Positions 30,348 to 47,538 of a stretch of 64,000 nucleotides of DNA are shown here, one piece after another. Under the pieces are notes generated by a model. It ran no database searches. It saw only the letters and a list, made by a program, of their open reading frames with translations, and was not told the origin of the DNA. The translations under genes and the position numbers were made by a program. Numbering within the stretch: position 1 is the stretch's first letter; each line of letters begins with the position of its first letter. Source of the stretch: Candidatus Latescibacterota bacterium (lineage in GTDB: Bacteria; Latescibacterota; UBA2968; SICM01); the NCBI GenBank assembly GCA_965217865.1, contig CBDCJO010000002.1, positions 576,001 through 640,000 of the forward strand, in the 5' to 3' direction.

Positions 30348-31174
30348 GCTTCAATGGGGCCGCGATCTAACGATCGCGGAAATGAACCTGGATCACCGTC
30401 GAACAACTCACGCATTTCCTGCTTCAATGGGGCCGCGATCTAACGATCGCGGAAATATCCCGTTTTCCTCCCGTAGATTACCAGGGCAGAGGGCTTCAAT
30501 GGGGCCGCGATCTAACGATCGCGGAAATAAAGCATTCTCCTGCGGTTTGAAAGGTACCTGTTTGCTTCAATGGGGCCGCGATCTAACGATCGCGGAAATC
30601 CGGCTCTGGAACTCCGACTCCAGCCTTCTCCGAAAAGCTTCAATGGGGCCGCGATCTAACGATCGCGGAAATACGGACCAACGCTGCTTCTCATGTCGGC
30701 CGCGTCAAGCTTCAATGGGGCCGCGATCTAACGATCGCGGAAATTACATCCGTGCGGGCAGGAGGAGTAACTTATACTGCGCTTCAATGGGGCCGCGATC
30801 TAACGATCGCGGAAATAACGAGCTTAGGACCGGAGGCCTTGAAGTGGTGGGGCTTCAATGGGGCCGCGATCTAACGATCGCGGAAATAAGCTGGAGTTCC
30901 ACACTGTGCCGGTATTCCGGCCAGCTTCAATGGGGCCGCGATCTAACGATCGCGGAAATGGAGATGGGGCTCGCCGACGAAATTGTAGAGGTTGGGCTTC
31001 AATGGGGCCGCGATCTAACGATCGCGGAAATCATTCCGAATACCACGGCTGTATCTTCCTGTACATTGCTTCAATGGGGCCGCGATCTAACGATCGCGGA
31101 AATCCGGCCTTTCCGCAAAGGTCGCGGAGATTTGTGAGGCTTCAATGGGGCCGCGATCTAACGATCGCGGAAAT
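30348..31174 (-). CRISPR. CRISPR array with 12 identical 36-bp repeats and 11 spacers of 35-37 bp
   Basis: Plus-strand repeat GCTTCAATGGGGCCGCGATCTAACGATCGCGGAAAT; the minus strand ends ATTGAAGC and contains a CCGCGATC/GATCGCGG hairpin; I-G-type repeat; cas1 lies on the right. Confidence 0.98.
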
Positions 31175-31358
31175 AGCCGGCACCTTAACCAGAGTATTTT
31201 CAACGATCTGTCCGGACAAATGCGAGCGGCGACCTCCCAAACACCGATATCCGGGTCATTCATCTATCTCTCCTGCGTCCAACCGACTGTAAACATTGCC
31301 TGTTCAACCGACGCGAGCGCCCCCGGAATTTTCCGCGCCGCCTCGTCGCTCGCAACGT
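31175..31358 (-). promoter_or_regulatory. Probable CRISPR leader
   Basis: Non-coding gap between the cas1 stop and the nearest repeat; contains repeated GCGAGCG/CGCTCGC motifs. Confidence 0.6.
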
Positions 31359-33133
31359 TCAACGCGTTACAAAAACGGGGTACTTGCCCAACTCGCCCTG
31401 GAGCGTTTTGGCGAGCAGACGGGCCTGGATTTCGAGTAATCGCCGATAACTGACACGATAGTCGAAGAGAGGATGCGTAACGAGCGTGTCCATCCGGGCC
31501 TCATACGCGCGGAAGAACCCCTTTCGCCCCGCAGCCGTCAACGAGACCGCGTCCCCCGCCGTCACGAAGTCACGCTCGGAGACCATCTTCGTGTTCACCG
31601 CGCTCAGCACGGCCGAATCCGCGATCAGGGGCCGTAACGGCTCCATCAGGTCCAGCGCCAGCGCCGGCCGGCCATGACGCGGCTGGTGATAGAAACCGAT
31701 CATCGGATCAAAGCCGACGGCGTAGCAGGCGACGGTCAGATCCTTCGCCAGGAGGCTATAGCCGAGCGACAACAGGGCGTTAACGGGGTCACGCGGCGGT
31801 CGCCGGTTCCGGGCCTGAAAATTGAAAGCGAACGCCGGATCGCCGTCCCACGCTTCGTCGCGTTTCAACATGCCGCCGAACAGCCCGAAATAGATGCGTG
31901 CCGCCCAGCCCTCGACGCCCAACAGCTCTTCGAGCGAACCTGCGGTTTCCGCTCGGCCCACGAGCCACTTCAATTCCCGCAACGCTGCCGTGGGCGGTTC
32001 GACGTGATTGCGCCGCAGCATCGTCCGTTGATTGCGAATCTTGCCCGCCACGAACTGGCGGGCCAAGCGCAGGCAATACCAGGACTCGTCGGACAGACGG
32101 AACTGCGCCTGCCGCAAGAAGACGTTCTTGGTGTTTAGCCCGGACGTAACACCGTAGAACCAGCCCCCCTGGGAGAAGTAGCAGACAGGGATCTCCGCCT
32201 CACACAACGCCTGCACGGCCTGCGTGCTGATTTGGATACTGCCCATCAAGCTGACCTGGCAAATCGCGTTGATGCGCGCTTCCTGAACCACCTTGTCGCG
32301 CTCTTTGATGCGGAGGACTCTACCGCTCTTGCCCACGCGCAGTCTCTGGAATTCAAATACAGAGGCTTCTGATCGGCGCGCGGCGCGACAAGGAGTCGGG
32401 GCTCTCGGACCGCAGGGTTCGGGCTTCGCCGTCTCCCCTCGAACAAGTCGAGTTGTTCCACGCCCTCGGTTTCGGTGTGAGCTTGCAGACGCCAGGTTTC
32501 ATCCGGCAGGCAGATGCCGACCAACGAACAACCGGGACACTTGGGCGAGTCGATGAGCGGCGGAGGTATTGCGGTCGCCGCCGCCGTCGCCCACGCCTTG
32601 GCGATGGCTCGCTCGGCTTCGGCGATCGTCTCGTCGTCGAACGGGACACGCACCCGCTGCCGCGTCTTCCGGTAGAAAACAACGCCCTCGTCACAGCAAT
32701 AGCCATTGGCGCGCAGCACGAGCGCCTGGACGGCCAGTTGGACGCGGTCGCTGGGCCAGGCTGCCACACCGTGCTCACCGTCCATCGGACGGCCGTGCTT
32801 GTAGTCGACCGGCGTGGCCCGGCCCTCTGCGAATTCCGCCAGGTCGAGCTTGGCGATGACACCATGTTCTTCCGACGACAGCGTGATCGAGCGCGCCACG
32901 ACGGGCGCTTCCGGTTCTTCACCCGGCCGGGGTGCCGACTGCGCTTCCCTGTCGACGTGCCTGTGCTGGGCGGCACCCTCGGCGGTGTGCTCGTTGTGTA
33001 CGAAGACACCTTCCACCTGCTCGAAGTAGAACAGCCGCGGGCAATAGACATACTCGTTGATCATGCGCGCGGAAAGATAGTCGGGCAATGGCCGACGGGA
33101 TGAGTGGAGTTCTTGCGCGGGGAGAGCGCTCAT
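31359..33133 (-). pseudogene. cas1: Cas4-Cas1 fusion with a single frameshift near 32345
   Basis: Cas4: EYVYCPRLFY, KLD...VDYKHG, QL, CPGCSL..IC. Cas1: LLGVEG.AA..YF, RNRRPPRDPVNALLSLGY, GFYH, LALDLME..RP..AD. The linker reads LYLNS then LRVGKSG in different frames. Confidence 0.9.
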
Positions 33134-33150
33134 GACAACTTTTGCCTCCG

Positions 33151-33660
<510 letters not shown>

Positions 33661-33718: not shown

Positions 33719-34963
33719 CTATACGGTTAGAGGCAGCTTCAGTTCCAGTTGCGGCCAACGTAGGATATCCGAGTCGCAAAGGTCGAGGGCCGAGAGCGCT
33801 GATTCCCAAAACGACTCGAAAGACTCTTTCTTGACGGACAGCAAGCCGTGAGCCAGCAGCGAGTTATTCCGTTTTTGTAAATGGTCCTTGAGGCAATCGT
33901 AAATATGAGATTGCTTACCAGGCGCCTCGTCCGCGCTGAACTCCAAAATCCGGAACAGATTCCGGACACCGAGTTTATATGGGCCATCGTTAGGTTGTCC
34001 AAGCCTCTCAATAACGTCTTCACGACGAACAGCCGGAAAACATTCTATCGAGACCTTGCCCATTTCAGCGCCGAACGCCTGCTTTACGAGTTGCTGACCG
34101 CGCAGCTCGACGGCGCGGTATAGCCTGCTGATGGCGTCGTCATAGCGCGACTGTTTTGCGCGTCTGTCGGCGTTGGCAAGAAGTTCAAGCAGGGTTTCAT
34201 GCCCCGCAGTCTTATCGTTTTGTGCCACCTGATCCTTGACGGCCGTCCAATGCTCATCCAGAGATACCAGCCTCTCGTAGAGCGGATGGTCGAGCGAGAG
34301 TTCCAGTTTTTGCCGCCAACGGCGAAACTCATTGTGGGCTCCCTTAAAGTCAAACCGGTCGGCCAGCCCGAGAGCCTTGGCGAGCCCGGCGAACGCCTCC
34401 AAGCGCGCTCGCTGCGACTCGTCACTCTTTTGTGCGGCATTCTCAAGAATCGCGGCGGCGGAATCGGCGTAGAATTCCGCCAACAACCCGTTCGCACGCT
34501 CAAGTTCGCGCACGGCGTACGTAATCCACGGGTTTTGGCATCTGACGACACGTTCGGATCCGGTAATGACCGTGCCAAGATTGTTGGAGTCGCGGCTGGA
34601 GCCGCCCACATAAACAAAATTTTTGAAATGCTCGACAGCGGCAAGCGTGAGTGCGGCCGACATGGGTTTGGTGCCGCCGGTAATGTCTACATATACCTCC
34701 TCGGGGTCCAGCTTGCGCTCGCTGAGCCACCTCTCTATATCGGTCCGAATCTCCTGATAGCAGATCCCGATATCCTGGTGATCTGAGATCTCCGAATACC
34801 CGTATTGAGGAACATAATCCAGCCCGGGCAGGATCTCGTTTTCCACCTGAGACCTTGAATCACCGGAGACAACAAATAGAACATAAGCGGGCCGGGCTTC
34901 CAAAGCCTTGCGCACCGGTTCTGGTGAACCTCCAACACTGGCGATCGTTCCGCGTAGGCTCAT
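33719..34963 (-). CDS. CARF-HEPN type III accessory ribonuclease (TIGR02710/Csm6-like)
   Basis: SVGGSPEP, VDITGGTKPMSAAL (CARF); DDA..RLYRAVE, RNNSLLAHG (HEPN). Confidence 0.9.
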   Translation of the reverse strand: MSLRGTIASVGGSPEPVRKALEARPAYVLFVVSGDSRSQVENEILPGLDYVPQYGYSEISDHQDIGICYQEIRTDIERWLSERKLDPEEVYVDITGGTKPMSAALTLAAVEHFKNFVYVGGSSRDSNNLGTVITGSERVVRCQNPWITYAVRELERANGLLAEFYADSAAAILENAAQKSDESQRARLEAFAGLAKALGLADRFDFKGAHNEFRRWRQKLELSLDHPLYERLVSLDEHWTAVKDQVAQNDKTAGHETLLELLANADRRAKQSRYDDAISRLYRAVELRGQQLVKQAFGAEMGKVSIECFPAVRREDVIERLGQPNDGPYKLGVRNLFRILEFSADEAPGKQSHIYDCLKDHLQKRNNSLLAHGLLSVKKESFESFWESALSALDLCDSDILRWPQLELKLPLTV

Positions 34964-35910
34964 TGGTCGGTTTCCTTTCGCCAGATCATGGGGACGGCGA
35001 GCCCGAAGGCGGCTTGAACCGGGTGGATGCTCCGTGCGGCAAGCGATTGACGAGCACTCTTGCTGAGCAAGCGTTCCGGGCCAATAGGGGCGCCGTAGAA
35101 AGGTTTTGGAGGGAGATTCGTGCGGAAGCAGGCACCCGCCGCCAGCATGACCTGCGGACGTTTGAACACGGCGCTGGAGTGGAACTCCGGGGCCAGTTTT
35201 CCGTATTTGACAAAAAGTCGCCAGAAGCCTTCCGTCGGGTCATCGGCCGCCGGTTGGAAAGTCGAGAGTGAGATGAAGCCGTCGGCACCGGGAATATCAT
35301 TCAGTTCAGGACAGGGCGTCGGATTGCCGTCCAGTTCAAAGCCGCCATGGCCCACCGAGGCATCGGCGCCGTATCCGGTCCGCCCCAGCATTTCAAGAGC
35401 TTCCATCAAAATCCGCATGCCGCCAGCGGAAGCCCGAGCAAAAATGGTCAAGTCGCCGTCGGACTTGCTGAGACTCGAAAACGGAACTTCAAAAAGTTCA
35501 CCGCCGTCGCCCGTGGTATTGGAAGCGCGGGAGATGGAGTTGCGTAGCCGCACGTGATCACGGATAGAGATGCCGGGATATTCCAGCTTGGGTTTCCCTC
35601 CACCTTGGACCCAACAAAAATCGGCAGTAGTCATCCAGCGATATTTCTTGATGTCCTTGCGCTCCTCTGGAGGCCAATCCCACCACAACGGGAGGCTCGC
35701 CGGCGCTGGCAGCGAATCGCCGGGAAAAGCGTCCGAGATGACAAATAGCGGCTCGCGGGCGAGCCATGGATCCAGAAAATCCCGCCGGAGCGCGGTCGGA
35801 CCCCGAGAACGCGCCCATGCGCACGCCATAGCGCCAAGAAGCGAATCCGCCTGCCAGGGCGTGGTCCAAACCCCGAGGGGCTTCAGCTTCAGGCGGATCA
35901 ATGTGTCCAT
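34960..35910 (-). CDS. csm4: Csm4 (Cas5-group RAMP)
   Basis: ADSLLGA, ISDAFP, RNSISR, GYGADASVGHGGF, K....M...GA.F. Confidence 0.85.
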   Translation of the reverse strand: MDTLIRLKLKPLGVWTTPWQADSLLGAMACAWARSRGPTALRRDFLDPWLAREPLFVISDAFPGDSLPAPASLPLWWDWPPEERKDIKKYRWMTTADFCWVQGGGKPKLEYPGISIRDHVRLRNSISRASNTTGDGGELFEVPFSSLSKSDGDLTIFARASAGGMRILMEALEMLGRTGYGADASVGHGGFELDGNPTPCPELNDIPGADGFISLSTFQPAADDPTEGFWRLFVKYGKLAPEFHSSAVFKRPQVMLAAGACFRTNLPPKPFYGAPIGPERLLSKSARQSLAARSIHPVQAAFGLAVPMIWRKETDQ

Positions 35911-36548
35911 GGCTCCCCGTCCAATTTGAAATCGTCGAAACTCACCGCTCCCGAACCCCGACTCGTCCCACCTCCCAATCCCGTCATTTGCACCAGATTC
36001 AAGCCGTTGGCAACGACTGCTTGGAGAGCTTCATCGCCGTTACGCCCCCCGTACTCGAATCCGGCGTCGAGATCGAAGACTTGCAGAACAATCTACATCT
36101 TGAACTCCGTGCCCTCGACTACACGCTCGTTCGACCGCGGATGTTCGGCCGCGCCCGTTTGGCGGTTGATCACGTTTTCCGTCTTATTCTCAATGCGACC
36201 GCCCTGAAGAAGCCGTCCGTCGCGGACGATGATGCGGGAAGGACCGAGGTTGCTCTTGGGATTCATGTGCGCTCCAAATACCCGACAGACGGGGCACTCC
36301 GCATTTGCACATCCACAAGGTTTGTCCTTCTGGTTCTGGCCGCCGAATCGACCCAGCTTTTTCTCCAACTCGGCCCGCATCTTTCCCTTGAGCGACGAGC
36401 CTGGAATGTAGGGCTTGTGAGTTTCCGGGTTCTTGATCACCGGGTTGTCGGAGCCGCCAATGGCCAACTCGTCTTGCGAACCTCCGATATGAAGGCCGCT
36501 TTCGCAGCGAACAGTAAAGGTAATGGTGTGAATGGCTGTTCTTTGCAT
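35898..36548 (-). pseudogene. csm3: Csm3 (Cas7-group RAMP) interrupted by an in-frame TAG at 36093-36095
   Basis: GLHIGG...GGSDNPVIK, PYIPGSSLKGKMR, CPVCRVFG; the same frame resumes after TAG and contains GLGGGTSRGSG. Confidence 0.9.
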
Positions 36549-36549
36549 G

Positions 36550-37080
36550 TCAGCGTCTCTCCTTCATGTATGCGGCCCCAAATCCGACCAGCGCCTCGAA
36601 ATGTGGTAGAAAGCCTTCCAGAAATGTCTTTTCAGGCTCTTCCGCGGCGACTACCCGTTTCACGTTCCTATTGATGAAATCTTGAAATTCTGGCGGAATC
36701 TTGCGCGCCTCGACCGCGTTCTGAGCATGGTAACAAAGTGCCTCGAAGCGGGCAGATACGCGAAGCCAACTTTCGCCGTCAACTTTCAATTGGCGTTCAA
36801 TCTCACGACAGTGATTGAAGAAACGGCGTAACTGGCCGGTAGTCAGTTTGGGATTAGACTGAGTTGCAAGCTGCTTGGCCAAATGATCAACGTTCTTCTT
36901 GGAGACGAAGTCGGGTTGAAGATAGCTTTGGCCCCGGTCATCAATCTTGAAGTACGAGTCCGGTAATTTCGGAAGGGCTTTCCCTGGTGGCCTGCTACGA
37001 TCATCGCGGCCACGGTCTCGTCGCTCTGATTGTGTAGATTGTAATCCCGCCCGTTTCATAGCATCTCGCATGTCAGCCAC
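36550..37080 (-). CDS. csm2: Csm2 small subunit
   Basis: LTTGQLRRFF...HFEALVGF; located between cas10 and csm3. Confidence 0.85.
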   Translation of the reverse strand: MADMRDAMKRAGLQSTQSERRDRGRDDRSRPPGKALPKLPDSYFKIDDRGQSYLQPDFVSKKNVDHLAKQLATQSNPKLTTGQLRRFFNHCREIERQLKVDGESWLRVSARFEALCYHAQNAVEARKIPPEFQDFINRNVKRVVAAEEPEKTFLEGFLPHFEALVGFGAAYMKERR

Positions 37081-38542
37081 GGCGTTCTTCCTTTCCCGAT
37101 CGTGTTGCCAGCAAGGCATAGCGCAGACTTGCCGCCGGTTCGGTTACGCGCCGATCGTTGCGCTCCAGATATTCGAGCACACGGTCCGCCCAGCGACGAA
37201 AGTCGGTGTGACGGCGGGGGCACATGCGCTCGATTTGATAAGCCCAGCGAGCCGCCCGCAGAGGCTCACTGTTCTCTGCGAGCCGGAGTAAACGATGCAG
37301 CAGTGCGCGAGGAGCCACGCCGGCTTCAACCCAGTCCGCAAGCCGCTTGCCATCGCCTACCACAGACTCATGTTGCTTCCAACTCCAATCCGTCCCCAGG
37401 GCGGCGCAGCGGTTCTTGCCCGGACGTTGCTTGGCCGACTCCAGGAGTTCCTCTGCGCGCTCGACGGCGTGACGAATCGGCACCCGGTAAGGGGTCAAGG
37501 CGACTCCGGCGCTGAAAGTCATTGGCACATACTCGCGGCCTGGCCCGGACTCAAACTCTCTTGCCAAAAACCCGGCAAAATCGAGCACGATGTTCCAAGG
37601 GCCAACTAGCAGCAGATCGTCCCCACCGGCATACAGCGTATAGATCAAAGGCCATGACTCTGCCAACAATTCCTGAATTGTCTGCCCGAAGAACTCATGC
37701 AGACTGTAACTGAAAGACCTCAGCCGCTGATACGACGGATCTTCTCCGGCTATCTGTCCAACCCGCACACCCATATCGTCCACATCGGCTTTCAGCACAG
37801 CCAAACGACGGTCGCCGCGGGATTGGTCCGCAATCTCCTGGAATGTCAGCGGTTCGCCGGAGTCGGAATGGCGCGGTATCCAGCGACTCACTCGAAAGGA
37901 TCCAGGAGTCCGGCTTTCCGATGCCTCAAAGGCGATGCCCAACGCTCGCGCCGAGCTGCCGCCGGGGCGCATCCATTTCCACTGTGTCAGCTTTTCACCG
38001 AGTTTGCGGGCCTCCAGACAGCTCTTACAATGGAGAACCTCCTTACCTTTATCCTGTACGCTCTGCTGCCCCGGAGATTGTCGGCAGACTTCACACGGTT
38101 CGTCAAGTGGAGGTTGACTCCAACCGTCCGGGTTCCAGCCGCTATTGTTTTGCAGCATGGAAGCTCCTATACGGCGCTTCTGAACTTCCAGATGATAGCG
38201 GGCGGCGTGGAGTGTCTCTGCCCAGTCCAGCGAGAACTGAACTTCTCCGCCGGATTCATCCCAAAGCTTGCGTTGCAAGCCGGAACGAATCTCCTCGATC
38301 AGAACGGGGTCAGTATCAGGTGGAATCCGCACCAGAAAACCACCCCCACCCCGGACCAGAACCTCATCATTGGCAATACTCAAACGTTCCTTTATCGTCC
38401 AAAGTGCGGCATGTTCGAAGAGTTCGAGCAGGAACGACCGGGATCGCAGGCGCTTCGCCTGCGCTTTGCCCGCGCTCTTCACTCGCAACACGAAGTGCTG
38501 GATTCCCGAGAGGTCACCGATCAAGTAGATTGCATCATTCAT
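37073..38542 (-). CDS. cas10: Compact Cas10/Csm1 lacking the HD domain (489 aa)
   Basis: Starts at Palm1 (GDLSGIQHFV...LRSRSF); Zn finger CEVC/CKSC; Palm2 KADVDDMG and YAGGDD. Confidence 0.92.
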   Translation of the reverse strand: MNDAIYLIGDLSGIQHFVLRVKSAGKAQAKRLRSRSFLLELFEHAALWTIKERLSIANDEVLVRGGGGFLVRIPPDTDPVLIEEIRSGLQRKLWDESGGEVQFSLDWAETLHAARYHLEVQKRRIGASMLQNNSGWNPDGWSQPPLDEPCEVCRQSPGQQSVQDKGKEVLHCKSCLEARKLGEKLTQWKWMRPGGSSARALGIAFEASESRTPGSFRVSRWIPRHSDSGEPLTFQEIADQSRGDRRLAVLKADVDDMGVRVGQIAGEDPSYQRLRSFSYSLHEFFGQTIQELLAESWPLIYTLYAGGDDLLLVGPWNIVLDFAGFLAREFESGPGREYVPMTFSAGVALTPYRVPIRHAVERAEELLESAKQRPGKNRCAALGTDWSWKQHESVVGDGKRLADWVEAGVAPRALLHRLLRLAENSEPLRAARWAYQIERMCPRRHTDFRRWADRVLEYLERNDRRVTEPAASLRYALLATRSGKEERRG

Positions 38543-38545
38543 GTG

Positions 38546-38758
38546 TCACGACTTACCTCTGCTCTCCATAGCGCGTCCGACCTGCATGGAGTCCTCAATG
38601 CCAGCGCCGGAGATACCGTCTGTGGACTCGTCACGGAGGTGCTGCCGAATGTAGGTTTGTTCTTCCTCGAATGTCATGTCTCTGACCTGCTCACAAAGTG
38701 CATCTCGGATTGAGCGCATCATGTGTACGGCGTCGAACCGCTTCTCAGTATTCTCCAT
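38546..38758 (-). CDS. Small putative antitoxin partner of the PIN protein
   Basis: KRFDAVHMMRSIRD...MTFEE; overlaps the end of the PIN gene. Confidence 0.55.
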   Translation of the reverse strand: MENTEKRFDAVHMMRSIRDALCEQVRDMTFEEEQTYIRQHLRDESTDGISGAGIEDSMQVGRAMESRGKS

Positions 38759-39209
38759 AGTCGATTACCTCCCTGGGCGTTCTGATTTCGAGTATTGGAT
38801 AGCCTTGGCGCAGATTCACTGAGTTGTACGCATGAATCCGTCGCAGGTTCACAACGTGCTTGAAGTTCCAGCTCACCATGACATCGACTCGGCTGGTTGT
38901 AGCGATAGCAATGTGTTGGGCATCTATCCTGTTTGCCGTGCCGATAACTCCCGAATCAACATACCGGTGTGCGAGTGCGGCAGCTTCTTCAGTCAATTCA
39001 ACATGCTCTCGATGTGTTTCTGGCACTTTCTTGAGTACTGCTCGCACGGCCGCTGGCGCTGACAGAAGCTCCAATGAGGTCAGGCTGGATAGCACAATCG
39101 TTGCCTCGCCACGCTTGAATGCATCCACCAACAGTTGTGACGCTTCCTCGAATTCGGCGTCGAGACAGCCTCCAATGACCGATGTGTCGGTGTAGATTCT
39201 TCGTTTCAT
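38745..39209 (-). CDS. PIN-domain (VapC-like) protein
   Basis: IYTDTSVIGG, EL, DAQHIAIA, VSWNFKH, EIRTPREV. Confidence 0.85.
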   Translation of the reverse strand: MKRRIYTDTSVIGGCLDAEFEEASQLLVDAFKRGEATIVLSSLTSLELLSAPAAVRAVLKKVPETHREHVELTEEAAALAHRYVDSGVIGTANRIDAQHIAIATTSRVDVMVSWNFKHVVNLRRIHAYNSVNLRQGYPILEIRTPREVIDYGEY

Positions 39210-39464: not shown

Positions 39465-41135
39465 TCACTGGCAACGAAACAAACCCAAGCCAAAATGCGA
39501 TGCATATCCAAGCGCTAACGGACCTCGAATCGGACGATCAAACTCGATCCGGATGGCGAAGCCACAGCGGATGGGAGGCTCCGGCCTATCCCGCCGCGCA
39601 AGCACAAAATGCCGCAGGCGGGACCAGCGCGGATTGTGGTCCTTCGGACTAGCTCCACTTGCTTCTTCCACCAAACGGATGAACCGAGACGGACACGGAT
39701 TCGGCGCGAGTTGATGCACCGACTTGGGCTCCGGTAGATTACGAGAACGTAACTCTGCACGCACCTGTTCAGTAAGGGAATTTTTCCCTTGAACCTTGAG
39801 GTAGCGTGGGGGGACGAAGGGCGTCAGTGTCTCCCAGACGCGCGCATTCCCGGCACCTAAAAGACGCCCCATCTGATCTCCAAGACTACCCGGCAGGCGT
39901 TCCAAATCGGCTAAGGAACCAGTTGCGGAAACGGCCAACCGCAATGGGTCGACGCCGCCTTTGGTAAAAGTTTTGCGTGCATCTCGGATAGCCGCTTGCG
40001 CATCGGCGTCGAGACCCATGCGCGCCCAGATGACGATATGATCGAGGTGACCGTCATCGTCGAGGTCCAGAGGAATGACGTGGGCATGTTTGTGAGCGCC
40101 TTTCAGGGGTCGGCTGTCTTTATCGCGACCAGTGAGTACCGAGGGAACCGCCCCCTTCTTCGCAGCGATGCTCACCAGAGCCTTGTGGAGCAATTCGCCT
40201 TGCGGTAGCGTCCTTGTCACCGGCGGCAACGCATGGTCATTGCGGCTGGCATTGGTCAGGGACAACAGCATGGCCTGGACCGGCTCGGCAGATTGCATTC
40301 TCCTCGTGGCTTTGGGCGCACCAACCTCAATGGCGTTGGTTCGCCGCCAATAGAAGACGCGTCGGCTGCCCGGCGGCTGGCTCCACCCATGCTGGCGCAG
40401 CCAGTTTGTGTCCTTCTGCAAGCAATCGAGTAGATCAACGGGGAAAGGGTCCGCGGCTCTTTTCCGGTCCTGCGGGCTCTTCTTCGACGGTTCTTTTCCG
40501 TCTGTAAGGGGCAAGCGGACCAATGCCTCTTCCAGACGCTCCAATCGCCAATTCTCGAAATCGCGAGCACCCACGGCCGCAAGCATCGCGACCTGCTCCC
40601 AGCCAAGTCCGGGTGATGCGCCCATCTGTTCGGGAAAACAGTTGCTTTCTGGCGCGACTTCGCCTTGCCCAATCACACGGCCCATGATCCAGCTTTCCGA
40701 ACGCCCCAGATAACCGAGACGCTCCACTAGGGAACCAAGGATGGCAGACTCCTCTTGACTCAGGTTCACGTCGTTCCACGTGACCGTTAACTCCTCATCT
40801 TCGACTCGTCCCCAGGTGTCGAAGACCAAAGTGGTTTTTTCAACCTTCTTTCCGTCCAGTACGGCAGTGGGCATGTAATGGCGGCTATGCGCACCCACGG
40901 CAGGCGGCAGGTGATAGCTCGGAAGTTCTGCGGCCAACTTCTCCACCAGACGGCGGGCGACGGATGGCAGGCGGTCGCCATTCCAAATCCCGGAGGTGTA
41001 GCTAACCGAGACCAGCGCACGGAGCAGACGCCATGGCGAGGGCGGCCACTCGATCAAGCCTTCGTTGACGTGATGACCCCAAGGAGTGGCGTGATACCGC
41101 CCAGCGGGAAAGTGAAATGCAAGGGTGACGGCCAT
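39465..41135 (-). CDS. csb2: Type I-G Cas5/Cas6 fusion Csb2
   Basis: GRYHATPWG...EWPPSPWRLLRAL; C-terminal GPLALGYASHFGLGLF. Confidence 0.93.
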   Translation of the reverse strand: MAVTLAFHFPAGRYHATPWGHHVNEGLIEWPPSPWRLLRALVSVSYTSGIWNGDRLPSVARRLVEKLAAELPSYHLPPAVGAHSRHYMPTAVLDGKKVEKTTLVFDTWGRVEDEELTVTWNDVNLSQEESAILGSLVERLGYLGRSESWIMGRVIGQGEVAPESNCFPEQMGASPGLGWEQVAMLAAVGARDFENWRLERLEEALVRLPLTDGKEPSKKSPQDRKRAADPFPVDLLDCLQKDTNWLRQHGWSQPPGSRRVFYWRRTNAIEVGAPKATRRMQSAEPVQAMLLSLTNASRNDHALPPVTRTLPQGELLHKALVSIAAKKGAVPSVLTGRDKDSRPLKGAHKHAHVIPLDLDDDGHLDHIVIWARMGLDADAQAAIRDARKTFTKGGVDPLRLAVSATGSLADLERLPGSLGDQMGRLLGAGNARVWETLTPFVPPRYLKVQGKNSLTEQVRAELRSRNLPEPKSVHQLAPNPCPSRFIRLVEEASGASPKDHNPRWSRLRHFVLARRDRPEPPIRCGFAIRIEFDRPIRGPLALGYASHFGLGLFRCQ

Positions 41136-41141: not shown

Positions 41142-42146
41142 TTACTCGTTATCTGTATCTTCCGCATCATCAGCAGTAGCGTCGTCTTCTGCCTTGCCTT
41201 TCTTGAGTTCGTCTTCGAACTTGATCTCGCTCACCTTCATACGATCTTGGCAGGTGGCGACTGCTGACGTCAGATCTGCTTCCAAATCCACCAAAGTCGG
41301 CAAAGCCCATTGGGAAGGCATGAAGGCTTTGACATCCTCGTCCTTGAGTTGAAAATCGCAAGCGGTTCGCAGCCGAATCCCTTCATCGGTTAGAGCCCGT
41401 ATTTTATACAGCGCCAATAGGATCAGGAGGCGTTCCGCACTGTCGCCCAGTCCGTAACCACGGATTTGGGCCAAATCGAGATTGACATAGAGCGTGATCG
41501 ATTCCGCCGTGTATTCGTCTCGTGCGAACGGAACGTTTCCGAATCCTTTCTTCGTGTCGCCCTGGGGGTTGACGTGATCGTTCTTCACACCGCCGGAAGG
41601 AGCGACCTGTACATTGTCCGCTTCTATAAAAGCTGACAGAGCACGAGCGACTCGAAGGCGCCCACCCGCCAGTTGTTTCTTGGCCAGGAACACACCATGC
41701 AGTAGAGAATTGATATCGTACTTTAGAATCACGTCAGCTAGCTTCTGACGATCGATAGGGCCGGTCTCCATCACCCCCAACTCTTCTCTGAGCGAATTAA
41801 TAAAAGTATTATCACTGTTTTCCAGCAGGTACGGGCTATTCAGCCGGTGGGACTCCAGTATCGTGTCCGTCAGAAATCCGCCGTTACGAGTTACACACAC
41901 GTGCGAAAGACCTTCCAATTCCTCCTTGACGTCCTGTTTCGCCGAATCCCAGATGGTCATCTCCAAGTGGTTGGCCATGCTCTGCACCGACTCCACCAGC
42001 AAGCTTGCGCCGTCCTGAACTTGGAACGTCGCAGCGCCCAGGGACGGGAATCCAGTGGGTTGGAAGCGATGGCCTAAAATCGGCTCCAATGGGATCTTAA
42101 ACAGCAGGCGGTTGGTGTCCTTGAGCGACTTCAGATTGATGGACAT
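41142..42146 (-). CDS. csb1: Type I-G Cas7 (Csb1)
   Basis: RFQPTGFP, LLVESVQSMANHLE, HRLNSPY, SLLHGVF, GGVKND, GFGNVPF. Confidence 0.92.
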   Translation of the reverse strand: MSINLKSLKDTNRLLFKIPLEPILGHRFQPTGFPSLGAATFQVQDGASLLVESVQSMANHLEMTIWDSAKQDVKEELEGLSHVCVTRNGGFLTDTILESHRLNSPYLLENSDNTFINSLREELGVMETGPIDRQKLADVILKYDINSLLHGVFLAKKQLAGGRLRVARALSAFIEADNVQVAPSGGVKNDHVNPQGDTKKGFGNVPFARDEYTAESITLYVNLDLAQIRGYGLGDSAERLLILLALYKIRALTDEGIRLRTACDFQLKDEDVKAFMPSQWALPTLVDLEADLTSAVATCQDRMKVSEIKFEDELKKGKAEDDATADDAEDTDNE

Positions 42147-42150: not shown

Positions 42151-44601
42151 TCACTCCTTGTTCGGATCGAGGCGGTCGAGAAATCGTCCAGCGGTTCGTT
42201 GCGTAATGGGAAAGGCCAGCCCTGCCACCCAGAGGCGGGCAGTTTCGGGAGACGTGGTACCGCCGCGCACGGTGCAACGGACACCAGCGGCATGCAGACG
42301 ACGCAAAGCAAGGGCGATGGCTGACGCGGCATTGCCCGCAGCAAGACGGCGGACAATCACCGGGTCGGCGCCGATATCGAGCTTGTTTCCGGAGCGGGTT
42401 TTGAGAGGCCAGGGAAGCATGCAGAGGCGAATCGCCATCCAGGCGTCGTCAGGCCAGTTCGACGTCTGGGGCAGTTCCATGGGGAGGCATTGCTCCGCCC
42501 AGGCCTTGCGGTCCAGAGCCATAAGGGCGCGCGCCATAGCCAATGTTCGATCCAGGTCCACGCCTCCTGATAGCAACGCGACGAGATCGGCGGTGCAGGC
42601 CGCGGCGCGAGGCCCAGCTTTGAGCGGCAGATGTCGATCGCCGCGTTGTGAAGCCTCAACTAAGCGCCGTTCGATCAAGGCGACGGCATCGTCAACCCCG
42701 CGGCGACCATGCATGACGACTTCAGGTTGCACATCCAGCCGTGTACCGGCTCCCGTGCCGGTCGTAGCGAAGCGCCACGGCTGCTTACGATCCAAGGACA
42801 GCCAATGCCGTCGGATCGGATCGATTGGCGTTCCCTTTTCACGGCGGAACCCGCGTGCCTGTAACGCGAAGGCGACCGCTAATCGAGCCTCGGGGGTTCC
42901 ATCATAGGTGGCGGCCACCCACTCAGGACGCAAGCGAGGCACAGGTTGAGCACCGTAGCCACTGCCATGGGCCATTATCTCTTCAACTTCCCCCAACTGT
43001 AGGATGACACGCTGCCAGGATTCGTGCTGGTAGGGATGTTGGGTCGCAGTGAAGAGAGCCTCGACGAGACGCCTCTCGACCGCAACAAGGCGAGCCGGCG
43101 CGTTCTGGTCGCGCGCCTCTCGGCGTATGTGACGTAGCCATGTATCAAGATCGTCAATGCAGGCCAAGTGTTCGGACTGCTGATCCGCAACATCGAATCG
43201 ACCCAACGGTACGGCGAGATTGGATTTACCGTTACGTTCGATGTAGCCGTATCGTTGAAACGCACTGATGCCTCGCGCTGTGCCCAGCCGCACAACGGCC
43301 CGCGCAAGGTCCAGAGGTTCGCGTACGGCCTTGGCGCCAACCTGTGCGCGTCCCTCTGCAAGCAAATGGCGTAGCTCCGTAAAGGTCGATGGGTGCGACC
43401 AAAGCGGCATCCACTGCTCGCCCCGGGCGCTCTCATCGTGGGCTGATGCACTGGCGTAGCCCGCGCTGCACGCATTGACGACAAACGGTGAGGCCGCACG
43501 CGATGAATCCAACGACCCGAAGCGGCGCGTTGCATGCGAAATGAATACAGTGGCGCCCTCAAGCATGAGCACAAAGTCCAACGGATTCACCATGCTGTTC
43601 CCCTCCGGGCCATTGCCGTTGTTCGCTCCTCCGGCAGTGCCAGGCAGGTATTGGCCGACAGGTCGCCCCGTCGGATAGTCAGAAATGAGCACACCCCAAA
43701 GCGAACCTTGAACCCAAGAAGTCGCAGTATGTCGGGGTTTGCCTTGGTCACTAGCAAGGTCGAAGACCTCAACGAGCCACTGCATAAAGTTGTTTGTGAA
43801 GTCAAGATTGCCGTCGTTGCCTCCGGTGCCAAGCAATGCCGGACTATTGAACTGATTGTTCGATTCTCTAAGCCGTCTTTTGTAGTTTTCCGATCCCTTC
43901 ATCCTGGAGAATAGCTCTTTTAGGCGTTGGTTTTCTTCCTTAAGCTGGTCCTTTTCTGCTCCTTTTGTCTTCAAATCCTTGATTGTTTTTTCGGCTATAT
44001 CTCTGGTATGCAAGAATTCTTTATAATCTTCGGCAGCCTTGATCTGTTCTTTTGCCTTCTTGAGTCGTTGTTCTGCTTTCTCCAAGTCACGTTTGTTCTC
44101 GGAATCTCTGATTTGATCTCTGTCTTTTTGGGCTTTACTTAGGTCAGAATGCAGCCGCTCGTAGTCTTCCAAATATCTGCGCCGATCTCTCTCCACGTCG
44201 TGCTCACCGGTCTTGGTCTCCGCCTTTATATCTCTGACTTTTTTATCAGCCCTTGATAGATCATCAAGCGCAGAACGGCTGGCTTTGATTGCATTGCGGA
44301 AGTTTTTGAATCGAACGGCCTTGGATTTCTCGATTTGAGATAGAGCTGAGCCCTTAGCGATGAAGAACCCGGATCCCTTGTTCCACGGCGACACAAGGGG
44401 CGTCGGTTGATACCGGTATAAGAAAAATCTCTCAAGCTCCTCGCGGGTTAAGGTGGTCGCTAGTTGAAAGTGATCCCCGTCCCACCAACCACGAGCGTTG
44501 GCGTCAACCTGTTCGGAAACCAAGCGCAGGATGCCAAGCGCCTTGAGGTAGTGTGCGAGTGGAGCCGGTGCACAGCCGTGGAGTCGATGGATGTGAATCA
44601 T
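42151..44601 (-). CDS. csx17: Type I-G large subunit Cas8u1/Csx17
   Basis: GCAPAPLAHYLKALGILR, PWNKGSGF, LLGTGGNDG.LDF, NP.DFVLMLEG, RGE.WMPLW, F.RYG..ERNG. Confidence 0.92.
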   Translation of the reverse strand: MIHIHRLHGCAPAPLAHYLKALGILRLVSEQVDANARGWWDGDHFQLATTLTREELERFFLYRYQPTPLVSPWNKGSGFFIAKGSALSQIEKSKAVRFKNFRNAIKASRSALDDLSRADKKVRDIKAETKTGEHDVERDRRRYLEDYERLHSDLSKAQKDRDQIRDSENKRDLEKAEQRLKKAKEQIKAAEDYKEFLHTRDIAEKTIKDLKTKGAEKDQLKEENQRLKELFSRMKGSENYKRRLRESNNQFNSPALLGTGGNDGNLDFTNNFMQWLVEVFDLASDQGKPRHTATSWVQGSLWGVLISDYPTGRPVGQYLPGTAGGANNGNGPEGNSMVNPLDFVLMLEGATVFISHATRRFGSLDSSRAASPFVVNACSAGYASASAHDESARGEQWMPLWSHPSTFTELRHLLAEGRAQVGAKAVREPLDLARAVVRLGTARGISAFQRYGYIERNGKSNLAVPLGRFDVADQQSEHLACIDDLDTWLRHIRREARDQNAPARLVAVERRLVEALFTATQHPYQHESWQRVILQLGEVEEIMAHGSGYGAQPVPRLRPEWVAATYDGTPEARLAVAFALQARGFRREKGTPIDPIRRHWLSLDRKQPWRFATTGTGAGTRLDVQPEVVMHGRRGVDDAVALIERRLVEASQRGDRHLPLKAGPRAAACTADLVALLSGGVDLDRTLAMARALMALDRKAWAEQCLPMELPQTSNWPDDAWMAIRLCMLPWPLKTRSGNKLDIGADPVIVRRLAAGNAASAIALALRRLHAAGVRCTVRGGTTSPETARLWVAGLAFPITQRTAGRFLDRLDPNKE

Positions 44602-44739
44602 AGTCAACTCTTTTGCTCGAAACGACGGCACCAAATTGCGGCGTGGAGTAGTGAATCGTGTCGGTCGTAGTTTCGTAGGGCGGTTAAGTAGCGCGGGGAT
44701 TCTTCTCCAGTCGATATAGCGAGATCTACGAGCGGCAGG

Positions 44740-47538
44740 TCAAGCCAGCACATTGGTCTCTTTCTCGAGTAAAGGATCAGCAACCGCTTGAGCCGAGGCC
44801 CGAAGGTCGGCGGCGCGCAGTATTGCTTCCAGCCAGGCAAGGGTAAATGGTCCAAAGCGTTCGACCAGATTCAGCACGCGTTCGGTCCAACTCTTGCCCG
44901 TGCGCGGGCTCAGGCCAGCCGCAGACGGTGAGAGGTCAAGCGCGGTAGCTGGCAGTTGGTGAAGCACTCCGTCAGAGGTTGCCAGCGGTAGCGTCGGCAA
45001 CATCTCACCTTCGCGAACGCCGCGGATGCGTAGCCGGGTATCGTCCGCCTTCTGGTCCGCAGGGCCGGAGTGCCATGTCATGCGAACCTTACCGTGATGG
45101 GCGCAGACGAGGTAGGCGACCAGATCGAACTCCTCACCGCTTAGATCGAGGATTTCCTGTTCGATGGTCGTGAGTTCAGCGGGCGCTGGGTCTACGCAAA
45201 CGGCATCTTCCCCCGGATTGAAAAAAGCGCTGTTTGTTTCACTTATGGCGCCCAACCACTCGCGCCAAGGACCGAGAAGAGCCTGATGTTCCGGATCGTG
45301 ACGTTGGAGCACGCCAAACAGGCCCAGTGTGCTGGCCAATTCGTGGCGGAAACCGCGCCGCTGGTCAGTAGAGTCGATGCGGTAATAGTTGCTCGCACTG
45401 CACGGCCACGCGATATCCGGCGCCTTGGCAATGTCGTCGCGTACGGGACGGTTTTCAGCCTTGATCGAGCCCTGAAAAGCGGGATGTGCCTTGCCGAGAT
45501 CATGCCAGCGTCCTGCCAAGTGCAACAGTTTGGCGAGGGCCGGGGGGACTTGGTCCGCGATGCGTTCGACTTCCCGTCCCACCTGCAGGCCGTGGCTGGC
45601 GATGGTTTGCCAGCCGTCGGTGAGACTCAGGGATTCGTCGTCTTCACTCGCGTCCGCATACTCGTCAGGTGGAAGTTCACGCACGCGCCGCTCGCCCGGG
45701 CACCAGCCGTCGCCATCGCGTTTCCAGCAAGGATGTCTGGCGTACTGAACTGCCTCGTCCACTGGTACGGGGTCAACTTGGCCCTTCGCGTGTGGGTCCC
45801 AGCCGCGACCTTCGTCGTACCCCCCCACGCGACTCTCCACCAGCACTGTCTGGCCGGGGTAGAGATCACGGCGCTTGACCTCACGCCATTCGCGGTTCAG
45901 CCAATCCCAGACCCAGGCATGCTTGTCAGGTTTCAGGTTCTCGGACTTCGGTCTGCATAGCCAGTCACGGGCTTTGAGAAAGGGCACGCTACAAAGCTCG
46001 CTACGAGTAGGTTTCATATCCGAGGATGGCTCACCACCATCGACGTCGGCCCAGAAGACCTGTACGTCGCGTTCATCGCCCGACCGGATAAAGCGGCTGA
46101 TATCGATGTCTGCCCCCGATAGATCTGGTGAGGTGTCGAACAGTTCGTTCAACTCGTGGCGCAGCAGCAGATGCGTGGGTTGATAGGGATAGAGGCGCGG
46201 CAGCAACTCAACGTTCTCTTCCTCGAAGCGCTCAAGATGGCTCGGCGCAACGTCGTGCAACAAGTTGCAGGCATCGCGCGCAACGGCAAGCTCGTCCATC
46301 GTATATGGCGACGCCTTCTTATCGGTGCCGTGCTCGAAATCGGCGACAATGACCTCACCTGCACCGCCCCATCGAGCGCAACGACCGAATCGTTGCACCA
46401 GGCTGGTCCATGGCGCAAGTTCGGTGACCAACAGTGATGCCGAGATGTCCACACCAGCTTCGACCACCTGAGTGGAAACGATGATGCGATTCGTCCCGGC
46501 GGTACAAGCTGCGCGATTGAGGAAATCGCCGCACCAAGCTAAGCGTTTGGTGGGGCGAAACCGGCTGTGTACCAAGCGAACATCTGTGTCAGCCAGCGCC
46601 TTTTCTGACTTGAGTGCTTTCCAAACGTCAACGGCCCGCTCGACCGTATTGAGCACGACCAGCGTTGGTTCTTCTTTCCCACGGCCGAGATGTCTGTGAC
46701 GCTGAGAAACGTATCGAGCGAGCGCCTTTGGATTCTTGAATGCGGCGACTTCGACGGGCTTCTGTACACCGTCCCATAGACGACCGGTCCTGTCCTTGGG
46801 TTCGATGCTGTGGGTTCTTTGCGCCAGTTCGGGGACCAAGTCGGCGGTGTCCGGGCTCGTCTCCAGCCAGTCACGCTGTAACGTGGCGCTCATCCACCAA
46901 GTGAAACAGGGGCGCAGCGACTTGCTGGCTTCCCGGTCTTCGGTCCGAAAAACCTGAATCTGTCCCGAGGTGGCAAGGCCCACATCCATCAACTGCACTT
47001 CATCCATCACCCAAAGGGCGTCCTGGTTCAGCAGACCGAATTCCATGGGCCAACGCGCCCGTGGGCTGGCGTAGCCCCGGTTCATGGCGCGCGACAGCAA
47101 CATGTCCTGCGTGCCGATCAATACGGCATCGCACTCGGGATAAAGATGCCACTGACCGGCGTCCACACCGCCCATGAGCAAATGGACGCCGATCTTTCCG
47201 TCATGCGCGCTCTTCTTATCCCACAGCACTCCGAGACGTTCGAGTACTGCCCGGGCTTCTTTCTCTGTCTGCTCGACAAGCACCCGCATAGGTAGGCACC
47301 AAATCAGGCGGCGAGGCCAATCGTCGTTTCGTTGCCGCACCCGATGCCATGTCCAGGCCGCGAACACGCCCAGCGTCTTTCCAAATCCGGTCGGGATGCG
47401 TATTAGCCGGTTACCGCAATCTTTGGAAGTTGCCAGTTTCGTTTGCCAAGTGAGCGGTTCCGTCTTGCCGCACAACTTGGTAAAGAACTTGGCGAAATCT
47501 GTCGCGTTCATCTCACTTACGACCATCGCTTCGCTCAT
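44740..47538 (-). CDS. cas3: Type I-G Cas3 (helicase with C-terminal HD domain)
   Basis: PTGFGKT, DEVQ, SAT, QVVEAGVD, QRFGRCAR; C-terminal H...WHDLGK...RHE...HHG...AD. Confidence 0.95.
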   Translation of the reverse strand: MSEAMVVSEMNATDFAKFFTKLCGKTEPLTWQTKLATSKDCGNRLIRIPTGFGKTLGVFAAWTWHRVRQRNDDWPRRLIWCLPMRVLVEQTEKEARAVLERLGVLWDKKSAHDGKIGVHLLMGGVDAGQWHLYPECDAVLIGTQDMLLSRAMNRGYASPRARWPMEFGLLNQDALWVMDEVQLMDVGLATSGQIQVFRTEDREASKSLRPCFTWWMSATLQRDWLETSPDTADLVPELAQRTHSIEPKDRTGRLWDGVQKPVEVAAFKNPKALARYVSQRHRHLGRGKEEPTLVVLNTVERAVDVWKALKSEKALADTDVRLVHSRFRPTKRLAWCGDFLNRAACTAGTNRIIVSTQVVEAGVDISASLLVTELAPWTSLVQRFGRCARWGGAGEVIVADFEHGTDKKASPYTMDELAVARDACNLLHDVAPSHLERFEEENVELLPRLYPYQPTHLLLRHELNELFDTSPDLSGADIDISRFIRSGDERDVQVFWADVDGGEPSSDMKPTRSELCSVPFLKARDWLCRPKSENLKPDKHAWVWDWLNREWREVKRRDLYPGQTVLVESRVGGYDEGRGWDPHAKGQVDPVPVDEAVQYARHPCWKRDGDGWCPGERRVRELPPDEYADASEDDESLSLTDGWQTIASHGLQVGREVERIADQVPPALAKLLHLAGRWHDLGKAHPAFQGSIKAENRPVRDDIAKAPDIAWPCSASNYYRIDSTDQRRGFRHELASTLGLFGVLQRHDPEHQALLGPWREWLGAISETNSAFFNPGEDAVCVDPAPAELTTIEQEILDLSGEEFDLVAYLVCAHHGKVRMTWHSGPADQKADDTRLRIRGVREGEMLPTLPLATSDGVLHQLPATALDLSPSAAGLSPRTGKSWTERVLNLVERFGPFTLAWLEAILRAADLRASAQAVADPLLEKETNVLA

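Follow-up and report, generated by a model that had tools for sequence, protein, structure and literature searches.

Type III-A Csm systems, such as those of E. italicus, S. thermophilus, L. lactis, T. onnurineus and S. epidermidis, resemble the module described here in the fold of Cas10 over its whole length, in Csm2, in Csm3 with its catalytic Asp and in Csm4, and share with it a CARF-HEPN effector and the order cas10-csm2-csm3-csm4; our module, however, lacks the HD domain, Csm5, and a Cas6, array and adaptation genes of its own. In Haliangium ochraceum III-B, csb2 acts as the Cas6 homologue that supplies type III crRNA, with target-dependent cOA signalling in E. coli (bioRxiv 10.1101/2023.06.23.546230); the available portion of that report describes no csb2-minus control or crRNA analysis. 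That system differs in its six-subunit Cmr complex, SAVED-CHAT/PCaspase and cA3, and is not a Csm module. The type I-G system of Thioalkalivibrio sulfidiphilus (PMC9638904) is like our host operon in Cas3, Cas8g, Cas7, Csb2, Cas4/1, Cas2 and the 36-nt repeat, but has no nested Csm, its III-B being a separate locus. Marinomonas mediterranea I-F/III-B and the "complex loci" (PMC5576922, PMC7145637) use one adaptation module and type I repeats for both type I and type III; their partners are mainly I-B, I-A and I-F, and the accessible parts of these accounts name no I-G (I-U)/III-A pair and no reduced Csm. Variant III-A2 (PMC12669027) is also a reduced III-A with predicted cOA signalling, but it is without Cas11 (Csm2) and is linked to NucC, whereas our module has Csm2 and CARF effectors.

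The locus lies in a window of 64,000 nucleotides (the whole stretch of DNA analysed) from a Candidatus Latescibacterota bacterium. All features described here are on the minus strand, in the order cas3g-csx17-csb1-csb2-PIN-70-aa ORF-cas10-csm2-csm3-csm4-CARF-HEPN-cas2-cas4/cas1-array. The named cas genes matched the expected profiles, bearing out the gene order of an earlier sequence-only reading and its claim of a type III module nested in a type I-G operon. The host operon has the components that mark type I-G: a Cas3 with helicase and C-terminal HD nuclease (cas3g, 44740..47538, intact; TIGR02621, 747 bits; Walker A, DEVQ, SAT and HDLGK motifs read), Cas8g (csx17 / cas8g1, 42151..44634, intact frame; TIGR04113, 562 bits; true start probably slightly downstream), Csb1 (csb1 / cas7g, 41142..42146, ATG at 42146; TIGR02570, PF09617) and the Cas5-Cas6 fusion Csb2 (39465..41135; TIGR02165; PDLC01778, 414 bits; C-terminal H-x-GLG loop conserved). 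The I-G-type cas2 (33151..33441) has PDLC01756 Cas2g as its best match. Both domains of the cas4/cas1 fusion (31359..33133) are present with a frameshift between them (NF049935 matched in two pieces); the two are fused in G031 and most relatives. The CRISPR array (30348..31174) has 12 identical I-G-type 36-nt repeats and 11 spacers of 35-37 nt, and the interval between cas1 and the first repeat (31175..31358) is a putative leader. The repeat forms a hairpin and ends in TTGAAGC, the motif reported for I-G (PMC11237760). A promoter/terminator scan gave signals at or below shuffled background.

Between csb2 and cas10 lie a gene for a PIN-domain protein (38745..39209) and an overlapping 70-aa ORF (38546..38758), earlier described as a PIN and antitoxin pair. 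The first part of that description has some support from PF13470 (E 7e-4, below cut-off), but profile searches gave no convincing match for the ORF, and its role as antitoxin is a guess from position only. Among 24 related loci, none has a PIN gene before cas10, and this gene is cargo that relatives do not conserve at this place.

The insert is III-A-like and comprises only Cas10, Csm2, Csm3, Csm4 and the CARF-HEPN effector. The 489-aa Cas10 (37073..38542) has Palm1, a Zn finger, Palm2 (KADVD, GGDD) and D4, and scored 254 bits with TIGR02578 against a cut-off of 170, which places it in the Csm1 group. Residues 1-482 of its model aligned to E. italicus Csm1 247-753 (Z 28.8, rmsd 3.2 over 456 residues), and neither motifs nor this structural alignment revealed an HD domain, as the sequence-only reading had held. 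The model indicates that Cas10 is Csm1 minus the HD domain with GGDD intact, at only 18-27% identity to solved Csm1 structures. Its catalytic residues are invariant in an alignment of 18 sequences. Among Cas10s shorter than 600 aa, GGDD was present in 85/85 and the HD motif in 0/85, against an HD motif in 33/50 longer ones; the HD nuclease, found in 65% of III-A Cas10 (PMC11229360), is typical rather than defining.

The small subunit gene csm2 (36550..37080) encodes a low-complexity N-terminal extension and exceeded the cut-offs of PF03750 and TIGR01870, and csm4 (34960..35910) matched TIGR01903 (75 bits) and PDLC01494. Together with csm3 (35898..36548, 216 codons), a pseudogene in this copy and whole in relatives, these make up the III-A set of Csm2, Csm3 and Csm4; the Cas6 and array that a III-A system would own are missing from the nested module. 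The catalytic D34 of Csm3 is retained here and is invariant in 24/24 aligned sequences. The gene directly 3' of csm4, the usual place of csm5, encodes the CARF-HEPN ribonuclease effector (33719..34963; TIGR02710, CARF1 family; HEPN RNNSLLAH, CARF DITGGTK). The sequence-only reading had missed that csm5 is absent from the locus. A search for Csm5 in this genome returned a single RAMP match in all, and TIGR01899 exceeded its cut-off in one of 24 related genomes, there at another locus. The catalytic residues present predict target-RNA cleavage and cOA synthesis. By manual register, the conserved R115 of Cas10 occupies the K360 position of T. onnurineus Csm1 helix 17 (cA4-like), although HMMER aligns this helix differently. 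Since CARF proteins serve as the effectors, we do not favour SAM-AMP over cOA as the messenger.

Type III-D is defined by Csx10/Csx19 and several Cas7 genes. This module, with one RAMP match, Csm4 rather than Csx10 and III-A profiles scoring best, is not III-D. III-G, like III-H, has an inactive or lost Cas10 Palm and no CARF effectors, and III-I has a Cas7-11i fusion; all three were ruled out by the intact Palm motifs, the CARF protein and the single-domain Csm3. III-A2 was likewise ruled out by the Csm2 match over cut-off and the CARF effectors.

The locus contains no stand-alone cas6, as had been noted from the sequence, and three profiles and two local HMMs found no separate cas6 that might serve Csm elsewhere in the 96%-complete genome; genome searches also found no separate Cas10 or Csm5. 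Csb2 was the only Cas6-like domain found in the genome, which supports it as the only candidate crRNA-processing enzyme here. Comparison of Csb2 with solved structures by sequence gave no match, nor did hhalign of its C-half against one Cas6. Csb1 too has been reported to process pre-crRNA, according to the accessible part of a preprint (bioRxiv 10.1101/2022.08.19.504415). The repeat has an 8-bp hairpin, 4 nt and then the 8-nt handle AUUGAAGC (z -3.9), the same geometry as that cut by T. sulfidiphilus Csb2, for which it is established that the cut falls 4 nt below the hairpin and leaves an 8-nt 5' handle (PMC9638904). The claim of a single array stood for the I-G repeat type (one further lone repeat match), though orphan arrays with other repeat types are present in the genome too, as are cas fragments. 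Among 35 ORFs (of 168) near the orphan arrays, there was no cas interference gene at E 1e-15, and the spacers had no full self-match in this genome.

We consider it probable that the locus is a four-gene III-A add-on with a CARF-HEPN RNase in an I-G operon, likely using Csb2-cut guides as an RNA-triggered alarm, and likely dead in this copy. In an intact copy, Cas4/1-Cas2 would feed one array (one adaptation module and one array were seen), and the Cas6 half of Csb2 would cut the repeat 4 nt below the hairpin to leave an 8-nt 5' handle. The crRNA pool would then be divided: one part would enter Cascade-Cas3 for DNA destruction; of the other, Csm4-Cas10 would bind the handle and Csm3/Csm2 would form the coat, and there would be no Csm5 to cap it. 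On meeting a matching transcript, the Palm domains would make cyclic oligoadenylate, probably cA4 to judge from the intact motifs and the effector families, and Cas10, from which the HD domain is absent, would cut no DNA. From what is known of the family, cOA would turn on the CARF-HEPN RNase, and the cell would go dormant or die, a second line of defence for cases in which I-G fails. The earlier proposal that the Csm module works with Csb2-processed crRNAs gains from Csb2 being the sole candidate enzyme and from the recurrence of such a signalling-only Cas10 in I-G loci; the loading itself we infer. Csb2 stays tightly on the 3' hairpin, with a KD of 43 nM (PMC9638904), which counts against hand-over to Csm.

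Intact copies of this arrangement occur in many uncultured bacteria. The Cas10s form one well-supported clade (FastTree 0.97-1.0; SH-aLRT 100, 23 rows against 26), and Csb2 was present in 22 of 31 clade loci, with canonical Cas6 in one (plus Cas6e in L023) and Csm5 in none, against Csb2 in none, Cas6 in 17 and Csm5 in four of 21 other III-A loci; these loci, taken with at least 1.5 kb of flank on both sides, are related by kinship and include two near-duplicate pairs, making the counts not independent, and the local HMMs were built from the same loci (that for Csm5 from 5 sequences). The Csb2 profile matched 23/24 genomes with the module, compared with 8/59 same-class relatives of this genome without it. 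Three Cas6 profiles were empty and Csb2 was present in 7/25 related genomes (G005, G006, G008, G014, G015, G018, G022) and in G000; 17/25 related genomes have another Cas6 match somewhere, which counts against Csb2-made guides. In four loci (L011, L021, L034, L050), the Cas6 half of Csb2 stands alone directly before cas10, with an I-G-type array and no Cas5 half. These loci fall in two separate branches, and we regard them as the best evidence suggesting Csb2-made guides.

Compared with L001/L002/L020, Cas10, Csm3 and Csm4 are 81-86% identical, against 27-53% for the I-G proteins and 49-50% for Cas1. The module thus appears to be mobile, changing both its host backbone and its effector. The effector slot holds CARF1-HEPN, CARF7-RelE-like or CARF2-HEPN proteins, once with the ring nuclease Csx16. 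A search for the module on plasmids or viral contigs gave no match.

The tie of the module to I-G is not exclusive, because L023 lies in a type I-E operon that has Cas6e and repeats of the I-E kind, L044 combines a Cas6-RT-Cas1 fusion with a repeat that is not I-G, and 9/31 clade loci are without Csb2 in the stretch examined. L023 and L044, together with six genome loci without another cas gene nearby and the common use of type I arrays by type III (PMC7145637), favour a generalist plug-in: whichever class 1 system is present, the module would accept its crRNAs if they had an 8-nt AUUGAA-like handle, and the association with I-G would stem from ancestry and from how abundant I-G is in these bacteria, not from a specific partnership. 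We think this improbable, as the 22 Csb2-bearing loci come from both halves of the clade and represent three orders of I-G genes, two lineages have kept the Cas6 half of Csb2 alone, and G023 also has an I-G locus elsewhere. It is partly compatible with an alarm fed by Csb2, which would still be the only candidate processor here.

Csm5 absence is common to HD-positive relatives and extends to 17/21 comparison III-A loci; therefore it is no sign of I-G partnership, and we rejected it as a mark of one. Its complete absence from the 31 clade loci is nevertheless what would be expected if Csb2 or its Cas6 half stayed on the 3' hairpin and capped the Csm3 filament instead of Csm5, on a full-length 72-nt crRNA. 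Csb2 and its isolated Cas6 domain do remain on the cleaved hairpin (PMC9638904), and the Csm5 of model systems forms the cap at the 3' end and brings in trimming nucleases. In 4/4 cases the stand-alone Cas6 half lies directly before cas10, and L010 has a second csb2 before cas10 besides that of its I-G operon. However, III-A loci without Csm5 but with an ordinary Cas6 exist, and therefore Csm5 loss needs no Csb2; six orphan modules are far from any csb2; and the partner Csb2s belong to Csb2 branches that are unrelated, which speaks against an interface shaped by co-evolution. We regard such capping as rather unlikely. As a similarly tentative extension, this unnamed, widespread clade would form a hybrid I/III RNP in which Csb2, or its Cas6 half set free, both cuts the guide and caps it, competing with Cascade for one crRNA pool, and would be among the smallest natural multi-subunit cOA-signalling effectors.

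The sequence-only reading had proposed a candidate for an undescribed system. We interpret the locus instead as a variant of III-A, because Csb2 feeding type III has a precedent in H. ochraceum, and loci of type I that house a type III module and have a single adaptation module have been described before (PMC7145637). What stands out more is the module, a four-subunit III-A clade without Csm5, HD or Cas6 that moves between I-G backbones and in some cases retains just the Cas6 half of Csb2. Our literature search found no paper describing this clade, and a published survey left out Cas10s shorter than 500 aa (PMC11229360) and hence would drop the 489-aa Cas10. Csm5 is regarded as a fixed part of Csm, as crRNA cap and recruiter of trimming nucleases, and a large natural clade does without it. 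This makes testable how a type III backbone terminates without a cap, and by what route a type III complex receives a crRNA that a type I Cas6 binds tightly. The four loci that have the Cas6 half, cas10, csm2, csm3, csm4 and an array, three of them with a CARF effector besides, are minimal test systems, and a DNase-free Cas10 of ~490 aa, as one of four proteins in a complex, would lend itself to tools for RNA detection or knock-down.

The present copy is mainly a pointer to intact homologues worth study. The reported interruption of csm3 is an in-frame TAG at codon 152 (36093-36095), a position that is Gln in 7/7 relatives checked. The split in cas4/1 is a 1-nt deletion near 32348, its frame change seen against L004, and a Cas1 frame of 325 aa starts from a GTG at 32336. 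Assembly error was ruled out for both lesions, which are also in contigs of other public runs (the csm3 stop in X3, X5 and X7; the frameshift in X1 and X3, with no gap over 32137-32630), one of which may be the source sample, X3 and X5 belonging to another study. Read-through of TAG by pyrrolysine or a suppressor was rejected, with no PylS over cut-off and no CUA-anticodon tRNA among 50. Since csm3 carries a premature stop, the RNA alarm of this copy is likely dead; the division of labour earlier proposed between Cas3 and Cas10 may hold for intact copies, but with a real csm3 nonsense codon it is probably no longer working in this genome.

These lesions, interruptions of the module in L019, L021, L023, L024 and L049, a genome full of cas debris and the use of Csm5 by S. 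epidermidis for recruiting maturation nucleases are what a degenerating remnant would leave, a III-A without HD, Csm5 and Cas6 carried as a non-functional passenger in I-G loci. True of this copy, such decay is unlikely for the family and, as a general account, highly improbable: among the best 150 matches, the clade takes in at least 62 distinct clusters at 50% identity, all with GGDD, Csm3 D34 is universal in the alignment, Cas10, Csm3 and Csm4 are unbroken in most long loci, and in nearly all of them the gene after csm4 encodes a cOA effector.

As far as tested, the locus is not chimeric. Short-read contigs (38760-39580 and 38760-40580) bridge csb2 to PIN with no differences, another (33415-33829) bridges CARF to the cas2 leader, and there were no joints among those listed for 32100-38900. 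At the 38540-38760 junction, no single listed contig spans, and depth was continuous in 2/4 runs. G031, of the same class, has nearly the same gene order, with cas2 after cas4/1.

The co-directional gene order put forward in the sequence-only reading held. On the minus strand of the window, cas3g-csx17-csb1-csb2, a PIN gene and a 70-aa gene are followed by cas10-csm2-csm3-csm4, a CARF/HEPN effector, cas2, cas4/cas1 and the array, and the cas genes match curated profiles. That reading missed a frameshift in cas4/1 and the absence of csm5, csm4 being directly followed by the effector; the I-G interference genes and the effector appear intact. Twelve identical copies of a 36-nt repeat make up the array, separated by 11 spacers 35-37 nt long. 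The minus-strand repeat forms an 8-bp hairpin, then 4 nt, then AUUGAAGC (fold z -3.9; 1 of 200 shuffles equally good), the same hairpin/handle geometry as in the I-G system of T. sulfidiphilus, where Csb2 is reported to cleave 4 nt below the stem, giving an 8-nt handle (PMC9638904). A further defence gene with a TIR/SEFIR domain (28935-29999, minus strand; PADLOC bSEFIR, E 3e-73) lies just past the array, and a CARF2-family (Csx1-like) ORF, truncated in appearance (53719-54237, plus strand), about 6 kb upstream of cas3. The whole CRISPR locus is flanked by direct repeats of 39-96 nt, about 22.6 kb apart and adjacent to a MobA/MobL fragment (27312-27558 / 49854-50151; 49357-49881), and it may have come in on a mobile element.

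Modelling indicates that the Cas10, read from sequence as HD-less, is Csm1 minus the HD domain: in an AlphaFold model (pLDDT 85), residues 1-482 align with E. italicus Csm1 residues 247-753 (Z 28.8, rmsd 3.2, 456 residues), without the HD part. Palm1 residues D10, S12, G13, I14 and Q15, four zinc-finger cysteines, KADVD and GGDD are invariant across 18 aligned sequences. When these were joined with 117 Cas10s of at least 480 aa from the best 150 of 4358 matches in a 50%-identity library, GGDD was present in 135/135, and the HD motif, by a strict pattern, in 0 of 85 Cas10s shorter than 600 aa versus 33 of 50 longer ones. One branch (support 0.97) unites 80 short Cas10s, comprising 62 library clusters from those best 150 matches and the 18 aligned sequences, and in a quick IQ-TREE run on 49 subsampled rows, 23 clade members separated from the rest (SH-aLRT 100). 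HD loss alone is recurrent, since a second, unrelated HD-less group exists, with Csm5 and Cas6 (loci L086 and L113).

Other genomes with this Cas10 clade inside I-G loci, which the sequence-only reading proposed seeking, were found. A species-level genome scan gave 24 loci at 53-82% identity, all in MAGs (G031 is one more), labelled Latescibacterota, Dehalococcoidia, Acidobacteriota, Opitutales, Binatia, Spirochaetia, Rhodothermales and others. Thirteen lie in I-G operons of csx17 type (6), csb1-csb2-cas3-cas8g type (6) or csb3 type (1), one in an I-E operon and two beside a stand-alone Cas6 half; six are orphan modules, and two contigs are too short. Searching metagenomes with an alignment of 43 sequences confirmed 555 stretches, of which the best 80 supplied 22 clade loci, including two near-duplicate pairs, and 58 comparison loci; L068 was placed in the clade by similarity only. 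The cas10-csm2-csm3-csm4-effector core is constant and its host surroundings vary, with insertion after csb2, after cas8g, between csb2 and cas3, or between cas2 and cas4/1. Cas10, Csm3 and Csm4 of the window are 81-86% identical to those of related loci L001, L002 and L020, versus 27-53% for I-G proteins and 49-50% for Cas1, and the adaptation genes are 72-89% identical to those of L004 and L024, which indicates that the module moves as a unit. The effector slot alternates between CARF1-HEPN, CARF7-RelE-like and CARF2-HEPN, with Csx16 added in L016 and no effector in L018; by definition Csx1 is activated by cA4, and Csx16 is a ring nuclease acting on cA4 (PMC12409355). Between the I-G genes and cas10, some loci (L002:9017-9100, L003:1700-1810, L009:8900-9160) contain degenerate mini-arrays with 2-4 I-G repeats, which perhaps mark a past insertion at an array or recombination with one. 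In L049 (7174-9903) a type III-B Cas10 follows an I-G-nested clade module, making three interference systems in succession.

In G000, the genome to which the window belongs (6.43 Mb, 2 contigs, 96% complete, 9.3% contamination), no candidate processing enzyme other than Csb2 was found; it contains one Cas10, one RAMP match (csm3) and one full Csb2. The earlier reading had seen no stand-alone cas6 in the gene run; across G000, PF10040, TIGR01877 and PF08798 gave zero matches, and HMMs of Cas6 and Csm5 built for this analysis, as well as tblastn, had the same outcome. This genome is rich in CRISPR debris, with orphan arrays of other types and I-E and I-G gene fragments scattered through it. Five orphan arrays have other repeat types and only fragmentary cas genes (C2:140202, 373316, 1972713, 2467575, 3275637), a second, truncated I-G operon (L032, C2:509643-512682) adjoins an IS3 transposase, and short 90-100% copies of window cas1/cas3 pieces lie at C2:251934-252265, 377106-377437, 3312262-3312907 and 326469-326528.

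We counted Csb2 in 47 clade and 58 comparison loci, the metagenome part being the best 80 of 555 stretches, with a filter of at least 1.5 kb on both flanks. Among the 31 clade loci that passed, 22 had Csb2, one a canonical Cas6 (L044) and none Csm5, versus 0, 17 and 4 of 21 comparison loci (unfiltered: 29, 1 and 0 of 47 versus 0, 35 and 5 of 58); the Cas6e of L023 lies outside the Cas6 HMM and hence this count. The family labels behind these numbers were checked. Csb2 was matched in 23 of 24 module genomes (E 1e-3), the remaining one being a MAG in which I-G repeats precede cas10 on a 2.9-kb contig, and in 8 of 59 relatives from the class of G000 that lack this Cas10 (E 1e-6; one class only, of non-independent kin). 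For each of the six orphan modules, the same genome has a Csb2 match at another place (partial in G019). Another Cas6-family match occurs somewhere in 17 of 25 genomes, and 7 of 25 have Csb2 but no other Cas6.

The strongest sign of a link between Csb2 and the module comes from four loci with an I-G-type array (L011, L021, L034, L050), in which an ORF of 284-349 aa directly before cas10 resembles only the Cas6 half of Csb2. No Cas5 half was found within these loci, and the halves fall in two separate branches of the Csb2 tree. Since the C-terminal domain of T. sulfidiphilus Csb2 on its own is reported to cut repeats but to be unable to build Cascade (PMC9638904), these genes would by analogy hardly serve anything except the Csm module. 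In L010 (8489-9952) a second, distinct csb2 immediately precedes cas10, the upstream I-G operon having its own, and Csb2s of 786-822 aa (L001:3582-5942, L007:7536-10004, L009:2679-5039) carry an insertion of about 200-250 aa separating the Cas5 and Cas6 halves.

Csm5 loss as a consequence of the I-G link is ruled out: Csm5 is missing in 17 of 21 comparison loci from the best 80 of 555 stretches, mostly with a long HD-bearing Cas10 and their own Cas6, so the loss is wider than the clade. In L054-L113, many long III-A loci that have a Cas6 and an array of their own (e.g. L064-L067, L089, L091), most of them HD-positive, lack csm5; three of these csm5-less loci, among the same best 80, carry a CRISPR-associated primase-polymerase. 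Hosts other than I-G also occur. L023 (11204-14260) has the module in an I-E operon; a 527-aa ORF there contains three repeats resembling Csm2, and csm3 is present twice. The second csm3, without the catalytic Asp motif and glycine loop, could be a Csm5 substitute. L044 (3720-6476) has a Cas6-RT-Cas1 fusion and a non-I-G repeat beside the module.

We consider it likely that the module behaves like a type III-A system whose sole output is signalling and whose crRNA comes from I-G. Csb2 supply to type III has a precedent in H. ochraceum, where cmr1-6 expressed with csb2 as Cas6 homologue is reported to give target-dependent cA3 signalling (Steens et al., bioRxiv 10.1101/2023.06.23.546230), and Bernheim et al. 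describe complex loci in which one type I adaptation module serves type III (PMC7145637). The earlier note called the locus its best candidate for an undescribed system, but crRNA sharing has been described before. As for the reduced module, the full-text literature searched, with subscription papers mostly outside it, gave no account of a natural III-A clade in I-G loci that lacks both Csm5 and HD. Makarova et al. 2025 define III-A2 (without Cas11, with NucC), and the terms Csm5 and Csb2 are absent from the main text and readable supplements (PMC12669027); its figures, one scanned supplement and Zenodo data files may list the clade. Hoikkala et al. report leaving out Cas10s below 500 aa and incomplete genomes (PMC11229360), a length filter that is only a partial explanation since many clade Cas10s have 500-580 aa. 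The module departs from strict III-A in Csm5 and Cas6 and is none of III-A2, III-G, III-H or III-I, so it is filed as a new variant of III-A. With crRNA sharing already known, the specific and easily testable part is a reduced, mobile, widespread module with a twice-derived stand-alone Cas6 half.

The interruption of csm3 noted from sequence is a TAG as codon 152 of 216; at that position CAG or CAA stands in each of the 7 relatives checked. The stop is covered without difference by short-read contigs of public runs X3 and X5 (one study) and X7 (another), none of which lists an alternative allele, although contigs lose rare variants; the cas4/1 frameshift is covered without a gap by contigs of X1, which may be the source sample, and X3. 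Both lesions are real. A search for TAG decoding found neither pyrrolysine machinery nor a CUA tRNA. The stop removes the last 65 residues of Csm3, including the glycine-rich loop, so the truncated protein is unlikely to form a backbone. The cas4/1 split may be tolerated, as a GTG just downstream opens almost the entire Cas1 domain. Module genes are also broken in five other clade loci, and the window copy of the module is likely inactive.
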